Assembly (NCBI GenBank): GCA_965197805.1
Contig: OZ240229.1
Span: 2,596,445-2,660,444, forward strand
DNA: 64,000 nucleotides
Reading direction: 5' to 3'
From: Dehalococcoidia bacterium
GTDB taxonomy: Bacteria > Chloroflexota > Dehalococcoidia > Lucifugimonadales > JAAXIE01
Part shown: in pieces, positions 56,326 to 60,558 of the stretch
Position numbering within the stretch: the first letter of the stretch is position 1
Layout: each line of letters begins with the position of its first letter
Notes under the pieces: generated by a model
What the model saw: the letters and a program-made list of their open reading frames with translations, nothing else
What the model was told of the DNA's origin: nothing
Database searches by the model: none
Made by a program: the position numbers and the translations under genes

Positions 56326-57957
56326 CTAGCTTGAGAACACGGGGTCCTCACGGGTGATGAATTCGAGGACGGCGGGGTGGCCGGCGGCGGTGGACTCTAG
56401 GGCACGGCGGATTGCGGGGACGATTTCGCCGGGGCGTTCGACGCGCTGGCTGAAGGAGCCGAGGGACTGGGTCATGCTCATGTAGTCGCCGGTGAGGTAC
56501 TTGGTGCGGTAGCGCTCGGCCGCCACAGGGATGTTCTTCTCGTAGCCGCCCATGGCTGAGTTGTTGAGGATCACGGTCATGAGAGGGATTCGCTCGCGGA
56601 CTGCCGTCTCAAAGTCGATGCCCGCCATGCCCACGGCGGTGTCGCCCATGACGTTGATGGCCTGCTTACCTGGGGCCGCGAGTTGCGCTCCCAGAGCGAG
56701 GCCAAGTCCGGTGCCCAACTGGGTGGAGTTGCCCCAGCCGATGTAGGTGCGAGGGTTGGTCGTCTGCCAGAAGGGGACCATCTGGTCGCGGGGGTTGCCT
56801 GAATCGTGGGTGGCGATTGTGTTGCCTACGTCGACGGTGTGGAGCAGGTCCCAGATCACCCGGTAGGGGTTGAGGGGCACTTGGTCAGAGGTGAGACGCT
56901 CGCCCCACTGCTTGAGCCAGTCTTCCTTGACCGACTTTATCTCTGCTGCTGTCCCGTTGGCATTCGACGGACCATTAGCTCCGGCTTGGGCCTTCACCTC
57001 GTCAATCACTTGGCGCAACACCAGCTTGGCATCGCCGATAATCGCTATGTCGATGGGGTACTCGCCGTTGATGTCCTTGGCGTCGTTAGTGGACTGGACC
57101 ATGACTTTGCCCTTGGGGACGGTAGTCGACACCAGCGTTTTCTGGAAACTGGTGCCGATGCCGAAGACAAGGTCGCACTTGTCTAGGAAGTGACCCACCA
57201 TGCGGGTGCGGGTGTTGCCGCCAGCACCCAAGGCGAGGGCGTGGTTTTCGGGGAAGGAGCTCTTGCCAAGGGTGGTGGTCATCACCGGGGCTTGGAGTAG
57301 CTCGGCAAGCTCGACCAACTCGTCGGTCGCCTCGGCGTAGAGGCAGCCCTGACCGGCGTAGACCAGCGGCAGCTTGGCTCCCAGAAGGGCGCGGGCTACG
57401 TCAGCGACGTCGCGGGGGTCGCCTGCGCTGCGGATGGGACGCACCGGGCTGTATTGGACCTCGTCTGCGACGGGGGCCATAGCCACATCGCCAGGGACCT
57501 CGAGCAACACGGGAGAGGGTCTGCCGGAACGGAGGTAGGTGAACGCGCGACGCATCATCTCCGGCACACGGGCGGGCGAATTGATGAGCTCGGCCCACTT
57601 GGTGATGCCGCGGTAATTCTCCATGCCGGAGAAGTTGGAGGGCGTGCCCAGCTTGTCCGTGCCAGCCTGCCCCGGCAGCACAAGGATGGGAGTGGAGTCG
57701 GCATAGGCTTGGGCGATGCCTCCGAAGGCGTTCTCGATACCCGGCCCAGCCTGTACGGTCAGCACGCCGGTGCGGCGACCGTTGAGGGTGCGGGTGTAGC
57801 CGTCGGCCATGTTGACGGCGCAGCGCTCCATGCGGGCGACTATGGGGCGTATCTCGGCAGCGGCGGCGGCATCGATGATGGGGCTGTTGGGGAAGCAGAA
57901 GAGGTATTCCACTCCCTCTTGCTTCAGGATGTCGGCGATAGCATTGCGTGCTTCCAC
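56326..57957 (-). CDS. Thiamine-pyrophosphate-requiring enzyme (acetolactate synthase superfamily)
   Basis: ERCAVNMADG, GPGIEN, SPVLLEVP, TPP motif GDTAVGM...LNNS. Confidence 0.92.
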   Translation of the reverse strand: MEARNAIADILKQEGVEYLFCFPNSPIIDAAAAAEIRPIVARMERCAVNMADGYTRTLNGRRTGVLTVQAGPGIENAFGGIAQAYADSTPILVLPGQAGTDKLGTPSNFSGMENYRGITKWAELINSPARVPEMMRRAFTYLRSGRPSPVLLEVPGDVAMAPVADEVQYSPVRPIRSAGDPRDVADVARALLGAKLPLVYAGQGCLYAEATDELVELAELLQAPVMTTTLGKSSFPENHALALGAGGNTRTRMVGHFLDKCDLVFGIGTSFQKTLVSTTVPKGKVMVQSTNDAKDINGEYPIDIAIIGDAKLVLRQVIDEVKAQAGANGPSNANGTAAEIKSVKEDWLKQWGERLTSDQVPLNPYRVIWDLLHTVDVGNTIATHDSGNPRDQMVPFWQTTNPRTYIGWGNSTQLGTGLGLALGAQLAAPGKQAINVMGDTAVGMAGIDFETAVRERIPLMTVILNNSAMGGYEKNIPVAAERYRTKYLTGDYMSMTQSLGSFSQRVERPGEIVPAIRRALESTAAGHPAVLEFITREDPVFSS

Positions 57958-57974
57958 AGTGATGGCTCCTCTTC

Positions 57975-58069
57975 TTGCTTCAGGATTTGGGGGTTGCTTC
58001 AGGATTTGGGGGTTGCTTCAGGATTTGGGGGTTGCTTCAGGATTTGGGGGTTGCTTCAGGATTTGGGGG
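57975..58069. repeat. Five perfect tandem copies of a 19-mer
   Basis: TTGCTTCAGGATTTGGGGG x5. Confidence 0.97.
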
Positions 58070-58165
58070 CCGGACCGGGTCCGGGGTATTGGGTTGTGTC
58101 GGGTTCACTGTAAGGGAGGGAGGGGAGCAAGGCAAGGCGGCGAGGTCGGGGTCGGCGTCGGGGGG

Positions 58166-58365
58166 TGTCACAATGTCACAGGCGGTTGTATCTAAAAAAG
58201 GGTTTTTGTAGCTGAAAAGTGTGACATCTGTGACATTGTGCTAGCTGGCCAGATAGGCGCACGGTGTGACATGGATTCGTATCTGAGGGGGTGTCACAGA
58301 AATGTGACATTTGTGACATTTGTGACATTGTGCTAGCTGGCCAGCTAGGGTCACAGTGTGACATG
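58166..58365. repeat. TGTGACA/TGTCACA iteron-like array
   Basis: 10 exact heptamers in both orientations, plus a direct repeat of about 54 bp and the perfect palindrome CTAGCTGGCCAGCTAG at 58333-58348. Confidence 0.9.
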
Positions 58366-58419
58366 CAGGACACCCTCCTGAGTTGGGCTGAGAGCGGATA
58401 GTCGGGGTGATCAGAGTTG

Positions 58420-58449
58420 ATTATAGAACTGATGTACGTTGCATGTCAA
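58420..58449 (-). promoter_or_regulatory. Leftward sigma70 promoter with LexA-like box
   Basis: Minus strand reads TTGACA-tgcaac-GTAC-atca-GTTC-TATAAT. Confidence 0.75.
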
Positions 58450-58456
58450 TAAGCCC

Positions 58457-58486
58457 TTGACAGATTCCGTACATATGTTCTATGAT
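58457..58486 (+). promoter_or_regulatory. Rightward sigma70 promoter with LexA-like box
   Basis: TTGACA-gattcc-GTAC-atat-GTTC-TATGAT. Confidence 0.75.
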
Positions 58487-58504
58487 AGTTTTGTTGAGCG
58501 CGCT

Positions 58505-58546
58505 GGGGACTGACCCCAAGAGGTCGGCCCCGGCTTTTTTGTTTTT
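58505..58546 (+). terminator. Intrinsic terminator-like hairpin
   Basis: GGGGACTGACC/GGTCGGCCCC stem followed by ggcTTTTTTgTTTTT. Confidence 0.65.
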
Positions 58547-58594
58547 ACGGACAAGGGCTTGGGCCTCCAAACCTTATCGAGAGGAAGGAGACCC

Positions 58595-59104
58595 ATGGAG
58601 GATGAGCAACAGGTGCCAAGAGGAAGCGACTATGGTGGCGGCGAGGAAGGGGTTAGCGAGGCGACACCCGAGGGCAAGGAAGAGAGGGGCTGCGGAAAGA
58701 GGGGTTACAGGGAGGAGTGGCTTGGCACGACGGTAGCGAAGGAGCGGTTTTTGGCGGCGCACAAGCTGGGCATGTCGGTGGTGAATGCGGCGCGGGTGGC
58801 GGGAGTTGAGCGTCGGACCATCTACCGGTGGCGGGACAAGGACCCGGAGTTTGCCAAGGCATGGAGGGAGGCGCGGGAGGGGCTGGTAGAAGACTTGGAA
58901 ATGGAGGCTTACAAGCGGGCTTTCAAGGGGAATGACCGCCTGCTGATGTTCCTTCTGAGGTCGTACAAGCCGGTGACGTACAACCCGGTGGCGTACAACC
59001 CGCGCCAACAGCAGGGGAAGAAGAGCCAACAGCAGCCCAAGTCCAGAGGGGGCAATGCTGTGGACTTAGTGGAACTGGTGGACAAGGTGCGGGAATGGAA
59101 ATAG
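58595..59104 (+). CDS. Terminase small subunit-like HTH protein
   Basis: AARVAGVERRTIYRWRDKDPEFAKAW...LEMEAYKRA...LLMFLL. Overlaps the terL start. AAGGAG RBS. Confidence 0.7.
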   Translation: MEDEQQVPRGSDYGGGEEGVSEATPEGKEERGCGKRGYREEWLGTTVAKERFLAAHKLGMSVVNAARVAGVERRTIYRWRDKDPEFAKAWREAREGLVEDLEMEAYKRAFKGNDRLLMFLLRSYKPVTYNPVAYNPRQQQGKKSQQQPKSRGGNAVDLVELVDKVREWK

Positions 59105-60558
59105 AGGAAGGGGCAGGGGCCGCTTGGCAGTTTCTTGGAGAGGGGGTCAATGGGGATGTGTTCTTCGACGACCACCGCGATGACCTGCCCGGCTACGAGG
59201 TCCCGAAGGACTTGGCGGAGGTTTTCAGGAGCTCGCCAGTGGGCTTTGCGCGTGAGTACCTGGGGGTGCGGCTGTGGAGCAAGCAGGAAGAGACGCTGAA
59301 CGCCATCCGGGACTACCGGCGGGTTGCGGTGAAGGCGGGGAACGGAGTGGGGAAGGGGTTCACGGCGGCTGTGGCGGTGCTGTGGTTCATCTGCAGCCAC
59401 AACCCGGCGATAGTGCTGACGACGGCGCCCACTGGGCGGCAAGTGCGGCACGTTCTGTGGCGCGAGATCCGGGGCCTTCATGAGAACTCAGCACTTGGCC
59501 TGGGCGGGAGGATGTTCAACACGCGTTTCGAGGTTGGCCATGACCGGTTTGCGCTGGGCCTCTCCACCGACGAGGCGGACCAGTTTCAGGGGTTCCACTC
59601 GCCGAACATGCTGATCGTGGTGGACGAGGCGGAGGGCGTGACGGAACCGATCTACGAGGCCATTGACGCGGTGATGACGGCGAGCAACAGCAAGCTGCTG
59701 CTGATCGGCAACCCGACCAGCGACTCGGGGGCATTCCGCCGGGCCTTCCACGAAGACCGGCGCATATTCCACAACATTACCATATCCGTCTTGGAGTCCC
59801 CCAACGTGGGGCAACAGGGGGTGGTGATCCCTGGACTGACGACCGAGGAATGGGTGTCGGAGCGCAGGGCCATGTGGGGGGAAGAGAGCCCGATGTACCA
59901 AGCCCGGGTGCTGGGTCGCTTCTGCGACCACCCCCAAGACAGGCTGATTGCACTGAGCAAAATCGAAGCGGCCATAGCCCGCTATGGGAACCCGCTGGCG
60001 GAGGAAGGGGAAGAGGAGGAGGCTGAGGCACCGACTGTGCTGGCGGTAGACGTAGCCCGCTTCGGCCCCGACCAGAGCGTGTTACTCCTGGCCAACTCCA
60101 ACAGGGTTTTGGAGATGAAGGCTCACCAGGGCTTGGACACGATGGAACTGGCAGGACGCATCGTGGACGCGCACCGTCGCTGGGGCCCGGAGCGGATTGT
60201 GGTCGACGAAATCGGTATCGGGGCAGGGGTGGTGGACCGGCTGAAGGAGTTGGGCCTGCCGGTGGCTGGGATCAACGTAGGGCGGCCTGCCCGCCAACGG
60301 CGGATGTTCGCCAACCTGAGGGCCGAAGGGTACTGGGGCCTCTACGAACTGTTCAACCAGGACGCCATGGCCATCCCGGACGACCCCGAACTGGCGGGGC
60401 AGCTAGCAACGGTGCGCCACCGGTACAACAGCCGGGGCCAGTTGTTGATAGAATCCAAAGAGGAAACCCGTGCCCGGGGCCTGCCCTCCCCCGATAAAGC
60501 GGACGCTCTGATGCTCGCTTTCCTGAGCCACAGGCCCACTGTGACGCTGCGCACATGA
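59095..60558 (+). CDS. Phage terminase large subunit
   Basis: Walker A AGNGVGK, Walker B VVDEA, LIGNP coupling motif, RNase H-like AVDVARFGPD, SPDKADA. Confidence 0.9.
   Translation: MEIEEGAGAAWQFLGEGVNGDVFFDDHRDDLPGYEVPKDLAEVFRSSPVGFAREYLGVRLWSKQEETLNAIRDYRRVAVKAGNGVGKGFTAAVAVLWFICSHNPAIVLTTAPTGRQVRHVLWREIRGLHENSALGLGGRMFNTRFEVGHDRFALGLSTDEADQFQGFHSPNMLIVVDEAEGVTEPIYEAIDAVMTASNSKLLLIGNPTSDSGAFRRAFHEDRRIFHNITISVLESPNVGQQGVVIPGLTTEEWVSERRAMWGEESPMYQARVLGRFCDHPQDRLIALSKIEAAIARYGNPLAEEGEEEEAEAPTVLAVDVARFGPDQSVLLLANSNRVLEMKAHQGLDTMELAGRIVDAHRRWGPERIVVDEIGIGAGVVDRLKELGLPVAGINVGRPARQRRMFANLRAEGYWGLYELFNQDAMAIPDDPELAGQLATVRHRYNSRGQLLIESKEETRARGLPSPDKADALMLAFLSHRPTVTLRT

Follow-up and report, generated by a model that had tools for sequence, protein, structure and literature searches.

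In the genome of an uncultured Dehalococcoidia bacterium we found two back-to-back promoters, here called P_L and P_R, each of which carries a LexA-type box within its spacer. They stand beside a stray pair of phage genes for DNA packaging. Both are probably repressed directly by the LexA protein of the host, and DNA damage would then probably turn on the genes that they serve. Control of this sort is familiar and would here operate in an uncultured Dehalococcoidia lineage. More unusual is the system around the pair, which comprises apparently mobile SOS-type promoter cassettes, a leader hairpin found genome-wide and scattered terminase modules. The host is a metagenome-assembled genome (MAG; G000) in a single contig (C1) of 3.68 Mb with 60% G+C. 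The pair lies in a stretch of 64,000 nucleotides (C1:2596445-2660444), hereafter the window, and coordinates given without a contig are those of the window.

Two divergent promoters with mirror-image boxes

A preliminary description had read TTGACA-N6-GTAC-N4-GTTC-TAT(A/G)AT on both strands, 7 bp apart, and this layout is exact in the sequence. Its elements are the following:

58420..58449, minus strand: promoter P_L, with -35 TTGACA at 58444-58449, an 18-nt spacer and -10 TATAAT at 58420-58425
58457..58486, plus strand: promoter P_R, with -35 TTGACA at 58457-58462, an 18-nt spacer and -10 TATGAT at 58481-58486
58450..58456, no strand: the 7-bp gap between the -35 hexamers, centre of a 67-bp imperfect palindrome
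58425..58438, minus strand: LexA-type box of P_L, 14-mer CGTACATCAGTTCT, with the core GTAC-N4-GTTC at 58426-58437
58468..58481, plus strand: LexA-type box of P_R, 14-mer CGTACATATGTTCT, with the core GTAC-N4-GTTC at 58469-58480

On the minus strand, from 58449 to 58420, P_L reads TTGACA tgcaac GTAC atca GTTC TATAAT; on the plus strand, from 58457 to 58486, P_R reads TTGACA gattcc GTAC atat GTTC TATGAT. The boxes fill the 18-nt spacers, share one base with the -10 hexamer in each promoter and are 43 bp apart from centre to centre. Both overlap core promoter elements, so the predicted binding would block RNA polymerase. With 73% complementarity, the two arms make up an inverted repeat of 30 nt.

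In a promoter scan P_L matches the sigma-70-type consensus at 12 of 12 positions and P_R at 11 of 12, both with 18-nt spacers. Between 57800 and 58800 the scan found no promoter-like site other than these two, and shuffled sequence of the same region gave a mean of 0.5 promoter sites. A degenerate 30-nt pattern, allowed up to two mismatches, matches only P_L and P_R in the window, and the whole 3.68-Mb genome adds no further match to these two; 100 dinucleotide shuffles produced not a single match. The arrangement of promoters and boxes is thereby confirmed and a chance origin of it excluded.

The boxes are a variant of the LexA motif of the order

The LexA box of Gram-positive bacteria (Cheo or DinR box) is CGAACN4GTTCG. 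With GTAC in one half, both window boxes are a single base off its core, GAAC-N4-GTTC. We compared them with the lexA loci of 29 further genomes from the order of the host. In 22 of the 29, GAAC-N4-GTNC lies no more than 150 nt before lexA, at a density of 6.7 per kb upstream of lexA compared to 0.06 per kb elsewhere in those loci. The consensus of the sites upstream of lexA, AGAACAT(A/T)CGTNCT, describes a site that nearly all of these genomes carry, usually directly 3′ of the -10 hexamer. The third base of the second half-site is variable: the 26 collected sites have GTCC (7), GTAC (6), GTGC (5), GTTC (4), GTTT (3) or TTTC (1). GAAC-N4-GTAC, the form of 6 of these 26 sites, is the window form GTAC-N4-GTTC read on the opposite strand. 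The window core, described earlier as LexA-like, is accordingly a genuine variant of the LexA box of the order. Two relatives (L102 and L087) carry the boxes GTACATTAGTTCT and AGTACATTTGTTCT within the spacer of the lexA promoter.

From the 26 sites, all of them from other genomes of the order and none from the host, we built a scoring matrix. The P_R box, read as AGAACATATGTACG, scores 18.9 bits with this foreign lexA matrix, which is the top score in the 3.68-Mb host genome; for the P_L box the score is 12.7 bits. Applied to recA, the matrix yields upstream sites of 12 bits or more in 10 of 28 genomes compared to none of 28 control stretches, as fits an SOS box.

The host itself carries one lexA (C1:301842-302471) and one recA. 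Its LexA matches TIGR00498 with 173.9 bits (cut-off 110.95) and, in the translation read by eye, retains the AAG cleavage site, the GMSM motif with the catalytic serine and the TLKH motif with the lysine. The LexA helix-turn-helix (ISSTSVVDYNLRxLQ; PPTVRDIQ..C.ISSTSVVDYNLR.LQ) shows almost no variation among the host and the other genomes of the order, so the motif of the order should be transferable to the host.

No box at the classical SOS genes of the host

We borrowed the motif from other genomes because the promoters of the host lexA and recA, from which the preliminary description had proposed to build it, are without a GAAC-N4-GTTC-like box (best scores 2.8 and 6.6 bits). None is found upstream of uvrA, the dinB-like or the imuB-like gene either, where the best scores are 6.9, 0.5 and 2.8 bits. 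The only repair-type gene of the host with a canonical box is a radical SAM gene of DNA-repair type (AGAACAAACGTTTT, 18.2 bits). It encodes a protein of 298 aa (C1:3331300-3332260), which we take to be SplB-like; the box lies between the -10 hexamer and the ribosome-binding site and is the best canonical box outside the host promoter family described below.

A host motif derived from its own lexA was also considered. The promoter offers only the palindrome GAACATGTTC with 2-bp spacing, conserved in the sister genome G004. As a host motif such N2 palindromes were rejected: elsewhere in the genome they fall largely within coding regions and do not define a family of promoters. The host lexA promoter (C1:302480-302620) also contains AGAAC-N8-TGAACATGTTCTACT upstream of TGACATC and the -35, an arrangement kept in the sister species (L112, G004).

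Since the canonical SOS genes are without the box, the host regulon is not a classical SOS regulon. To judge from these promoters, LexA autoregulation, the usual anchor of a LexA motif, is missing in the host genus, and the classical SOS genes seem to be uncoupled from the box motif there. That the classical SOS genes of the host, lexA included, have no box is the main weakness of reading the window boxes as LexA operators.

The same absence favours a reading in which the boxes are operators of a regulator other than LexA and owe their likeness to mimicry or shared ancestry. Candidates would be a repressor that belongs to the phage-derived or mobile promoter family, or a small protein with an HTH_23 domain encoded at C1:223504-223920 (109 aa, with a Cys-rich N-terminus). 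Two LexA-type boxes of 13.5 and 17.0 bits lie upstream of the HTH_23 gene, one of them in a promoter spacer, which is the layout typical of an autoregulated repressor, and the protein, at C1:223.6 kb, is a candidate for a role in regulating this same circuit. The ties of the box family to mobile or phage-like DNA point the same way. Against this stand the presence of the same motif before lexA (22 of 29) and recA (10 of 28) in the order, and the host LexA itself, whose identical recognition helix predicts that it binds the boxes regardless of what else does. The window, moreover, encodes no repressor beside the promoters. We therefore consider another regulator unlikely and retain direct repression by the host LexA as the preferred reading.

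A genome-wide family of promoters with the box in the spacer

Counts of raw matrix matches in the host genome are not above those in second-order Markov genomes: 112 matches of at least 12 bits compared to about 170 expected, hence no excess, and 4 of at least 18 bits compared to 2.6 expected. We therefore discarded the matrix score as evidence in itself and used promoter context as support. A site was counted as promoter-embedded when flanked by a -35 of the form TTGAC or TTGCC and a -10 of the form TAnnnT. Among matrix sites of at least 14 bits, 17 of 33 lie exactly between -35 and -10, as do 28 of 99 at 12 bits or more and 36 of 281 at 10 bits or more; three random genomes contain 0 to 2 promoter-embedded sites. 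P_L and P_R are thus two members, placed back to back, of a family of around 36 promoters with a box in the spacer. Promoter architecture of the P_L/P_R type is found at around 90 promoters of the host genome.

In the set of 36 the sequence information falls chiefly on the -35, box and -10, and the bases between -35 and box are nearly random, which argues for a maintained motif and not for recent copies. Many promoters of this class face metabolic genes, among them genes for a Rieske oxygenase, an amidohydrolase and luciferase-like monooxygenases, as fits cassettes that land beside unrelated genes.

Half-sites are conserved between species and the box recurs in distant genera

The divergent pair is kept in two sister species, at the loci L003 (genome G063) and L116 (genome G062). 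P_L compares as follows:

-35 of P_L: TTGACA in the window, TTGCCA in L003, TTGACA in L116
Box core of P_L: GTACATCAGTTC in the window, GTACATAGGTTC in L003, GTACATGAGTTC in L116
-10 of P_L: TATAAT in the window, TATAAT in L003, TATGAT in L116
Other spacer bases of P_L: TGCAAC in the window, AATCGC in L003, ATCCGC in L116

The half-sites of the P_L box are identical in the three species, and the N4 centre and the other spacer bases drift, which is the footprint expected of a working operator. In P_R the half beside the -10 (GTTCTA) is invariant in the three species. Its distal half is GTAC in the window and AAAC in both sisters, which makes the sister boxes weaker sites of the GAAC-N4-GTTT type, a form also found at lexA in three relatives.

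Boxes of at least 13 bits are present in 14 of 77 regions upstream of terS or terL in other Dehalococcoidia, compared to none of 77 control regions inside terL. Those of four distant loci, GGAACATAAGTTCT (L059), GGAACATTAGTTCT (L078), TGAACATTAGTTCT (L052) and AGTACATTAGTTCT (L076), each lie directly before a -10-like hexamer TAnnnn. Distant terL promoters (L059, L064, L073, L076 and L078) share the plan ATGACAC-N5-TACGAT-N3/4-LexA box-TAnnnn, in which TACGAT replaces TTGACA.

P_L faces a mobile element

The preliminary description had P_L firing toward a thiamine pyrophosphate (TPP) enzyme. Its conserved partner is instead a 224-bp element made of TGTCACA words, which lies between P_L and that gene:

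58142..58365, minus strand: 224-bp element, an array of the words TGTCACA/TGTGACA, with predicted transcription from P_L
57975..58069, no strand: perfect tandem repeat of 19 bp x 5, TTGCTTCAGGATTTGGGGG, immediately ahead of the TPP gene's ribosome-binding site
56326..57957, minus strand: gene for a TPP-dependent enzyme (Pfam TPP_enzyme_N/M/C)

The 224-bp element has 15 copies in the host with 79-90% identity and occurs in similar numbers in sister genomes. For 11 of the 15 copies, a promoter in the same orientation with a LexA-type box in its spacer lies upstream, and the element stays beside P_L in the sister species. The 19-bp x 5 repeat is absent from the block conserved in the sister species. 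The left neighbour of the block also changes, being the TPP enzyme in the host, a valyl-tRNA synthetase in G063 and a luciferase-like monooxygenase in G062, and we rejected the TPP enzyme as a conserved target of P_L on that ground. The stretch from P_L to the TPP start has no further predicted promoter and no predicted terminator, so read-through from P_L into the TPP gene is possible but would be lineage-specific.

The element consists of two tandem half-units and has the ends ATGTCACA...TGTGACAT. A 62-codon frame with a good ribosome-binding site in the window was considered as a small protein and rejected; we treat the element as non-coding because the frames differ between copies. The word TGACAYC, the same as the unit of the 224-bp array, also stands 6-9 nt upstream of the -35 in 63 TTGAC promoters, compared to 9 in a control with reversed order and 5 in a control with shifted spacing. 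Examples are at C1:302563 (lexA), 1560009 (a tRNA) and 930313, and TGACAYC appears to serve promoters of the host lineage generally as an upstream element.

Among orthologs of the TPP gene, that of G062 has its own promoter-element cassette, and those of G004, G063 and G061 have neither element nor box upstream. The cassette, present at TPP in the host and G062 and absent in the other three, is on this distribution mobile, and the 224-bp element behaves as a mobile cassette together with its LexA-box promoter.

In a further rival reading the box might be inert, a passenger in a copied promoter cassette that is kept by descent and by the overlap of GTTCTA with the -10 region; the far better conservation of the GTTCTA half than of the distal half would be explained by this, and so would the spread of the cassette to the TPP gene in two genomes of the five. 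The copies, however, share motifs and not sequence, with almost no information in the bases from -35 to box. In addition, the distal half is limited to variants allowed at lexA sites (GTAC, GCAC, AAAC, GAAC), and distant genera with a different -35 keep the box in the same place. An inert box is thus decidedly improbable. That an AT-rich promoter spacer merely resembles GAAC-N4-GTTC by chance is scarcely credible: sites of 16 to 19 bits do turn up, 3 to 13 times, in random genomes as large as the host's, but here two sites lie at mirror positions 43 bp apart, 36 sites are promoter-embedded where random genomes have at most 2, and the half-sites are conserved across species.

A conserved hairpin separates P_R from the terminase genes

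Rightward, P_R faces terS-terL, as the preliminary description had it. A direct firing into these genes is less simple than described, as a conserved, strong terminator-like hairpin lies in between:

58502..58546, plus strand: leader hairpin GCUGGGGACUGACC-CCAAGA-GGUCGGCCCCGGC, a stem-loop at 58502-58534 followed by U6GU5
58595..59104, plus strand: terS, small terminase with a helix-turn-helix (phrog_4044, E=1.8e-20)
59095..60558, plus strand: terL, large terminase (phrog_2, E=8e-36)

The hairpin has a 13-pair stem (-25.7 kcal/mol) and was partly recovered by a terminator scan. It begins around 15 nt past the -10 of P_R, ends 50 nt before the terS start, is invariant in four members of the genus and looks like an intrinsic terminator. 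Because it stands between P_R and terS, release of LexA alone may not express terS-terL, and expression probably needs read-through in addition. The conserved terminator thus corrects the simple picture of a damage switch into terS-terL.

The hairpin is not peculiar to P_R. Around 42 host promoters are followed, around 10 nt past the -10, by the same hairpin, GC[A/U]GGGGACUGACCCC-loop-GGUC.CCCC[U/A]GC, and a U-run (examples at C1:30905, 187154, 930260 and 3647748). One stem pair covaries, being A-U in 18 units and U-A in 13. A consensus fold of the 42 hairpins recovers the outer 5 pairs only, because differences in loop length spoil the alignment. Together they look like a family of immediate terminators or short RNAs. 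An Rfam search of 57000-59500 returned no family at E<=1, so the leader hairpin and the 224-bp element both fall outside the described RNAs. Distant terL loci of Dehalococcoidia (L049, L067) also contain the 5′ half of the hairpin.

The terminase genes belong to a dispersed set. The host genome has seven paralogs of terS and three more copies of terL (C1:738676, 609-610k, which is broken, and 3479831). Relatives of terL are found in more than 100 Dehalococcoidia loci, all from Dehalococcoidia or Chloroflexota MAGs, and the comparison with Dehalococcoides drawn in the preliminary description is apt at the level of the class. An intact prophage past terL was looked for in the window and rejected, the next genes encoding a protein of unknown function, an aspartyl protease and a radical SAM/SPASM protein. 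At the distant locus L059 (3560-6909), a terL with an N-terminal extension of around 118 aa is followed by a portal gene and then by ABC-transporter genes; this locus, as in the window, is a packaging stub without a phage.

Elsewhere in the host, a phage-like cluster (C1:3466000-3485200; L159, L124) contains two divergent operons. The plus-strand operon at 3.479-3.485 Mb consists of terS, terL, a gene for a 770-aa protein of unknown function and a portal gene, and its promoter carries CAAACATACGTTCT. The minus-strand operon at 3.466-3.476 Mb encodes a prohead protease, major head protein, adaptor, tail terminator, HNH endonuclease and RusA, and its promoter has a perfect GAAC-N4-GTTC core, GCGAACGGGTGTTCT. 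Within the examined stretch C1:3466000-3485200 we saw no genes for tail fibres, lysis or an integrase. The terS-terL of the window is best read as an extra copy of the packaging module from this cluster, under the same type of operator.

A model for the promoter pair

The comparison establishes the anatomy of the sequence, the LexA motif across the order, the promoter family and conservation inside the genus. From these features we infer LexA binding, repression, induction by damage and terminator function at P_L and P_R, and propose the following mechanism. P_L and P_R would be two of the genome-wide sigma-70-type promoters with a LexA operator over the spacer and the -10 region. The operator would have the form AGAAC-N4-GTNCT, with GTAC as the weaker half at P_L and P_R. 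One LexA dimer would occupy each spacer and block RNA polymerase there; the 43 bp between box centres are around four helical turns, which would put both dimers on roughly the same face of the DNA. Upon DNA damage, activated RecA would lead to self-cleavage of LexA, and both promoters would open. P_R would then transcribe a short leader ending in the conserved hairpin and U-run before terS, and terS-terL would probably need read-through or antitermination as a second step. P_L would transcribe the 224-bp element and, in the host species only, may continue into the TPP-enzyme gene.

A bolder scheme, which we regard as quite doubtful, is that LexA gates dispersed phage-derived packaging and no longer the classical repair genes, so that damage would lead to packaging or cutting in the manner of a gene transfer agent (GTA) at many fixed sites. 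Its parts may be the several terS(-terL) modules, the one head and one portal operon and the roughly 15 224-bp elements with LexA-box promoters. The small terminase would use the word arrays as its sites of recognition or entry on the chromosome, and promoter cassettes, once landed, would also place neighbouring metabolic genes under SOS control.

The analysis provides a concrete LexA motif and a candidate regulon of around 36 promoters for a large, uncultured bacterial class; to our knowledge, only one experimental LexA study exists for Dehalococcoidia (Dehalococcoides, 2002). It further hints at direct control of phage-derived packaging and head genes by LexA, with no phage repressor involved. 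Direct control of this kind would bear on damage-driven gene transfer or prophage activity in environmental bacteria. A mobile promoter cassette with an SOS-type operator, in turn, can rewire the control of any adjacent gene.

Comparison with known systems

A Cheo-type box is reportedly recognised by the LexA of Dehalococcoides ethenogenes. Like the Cheo box, the box of the order is palindromic and 14 bp long, with a 4-bp gap between half-sites of 4 bp, and the strong half AGAAC is identical; it differs in a second half that is loose at the third base (GTTC, GTAC, GTCC, GTGC or GTTT).

Lambdoid phages place an immediate terminator, tR', after the late promoter P_R', and it is read through only with Q. 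P_R resembles this arrangement as a strong promoter with a putative intrinsic terminator within around 60 nt, just upstream of late or terminase genes. It differs in that no Q-like gene or qut site was identified here, and since the same hairpin follows around 42 host promoters, any read-through factor would be host-wide.

The B. subtilis form of the LexA box is quoted in PMC3091678, which also relates to it the cyanobacterial LexA box RGTACNNNDGTWCB (Mazon et al. 2004, as quoted there). With that quoted consensus the window boxes share GTAC-N4-GTWC as their core, and by our count each 14-mer agrees at 13 of 14 positions, the exception being C for R at position 1. The host, on the other hand, belongs to the Chloroflexota, and the consensus of its order at lexA sites prefers GAAC in the strong half.

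In phage GIL01, according to PMC4551915 and PMC6182141, the host LexA binds SOS boxes in promoter P1 and represses it directly, a small phage co-repressor, gp7, is required, and the LexA-controlled promoters drive early and replication genes. The window is similar to GIL01, as so described, in that a phage-derived unit has boxes for the host LexA in its promoter and no intervening CI-like repressor, and direct SOS induction is predicted. It differs in that boxes of the window type are on promoters of packaging (terS-terL) and head genes.

Production of the gene transfer agent RcGTA of Rhodobacter capsulatus is LexA-dependent, indirectly via repression of cckA (Kuchinski et al. 2016, as cited in PMC6363796). 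RcGTA, on that account, is comparable to the present case in that chromosomal packaging and head genes of phage origin are linked, in our host putatively, to the SOS regulator; the difference is that in our host the LexA-type boxes lie within the terS-terL promoter itself.
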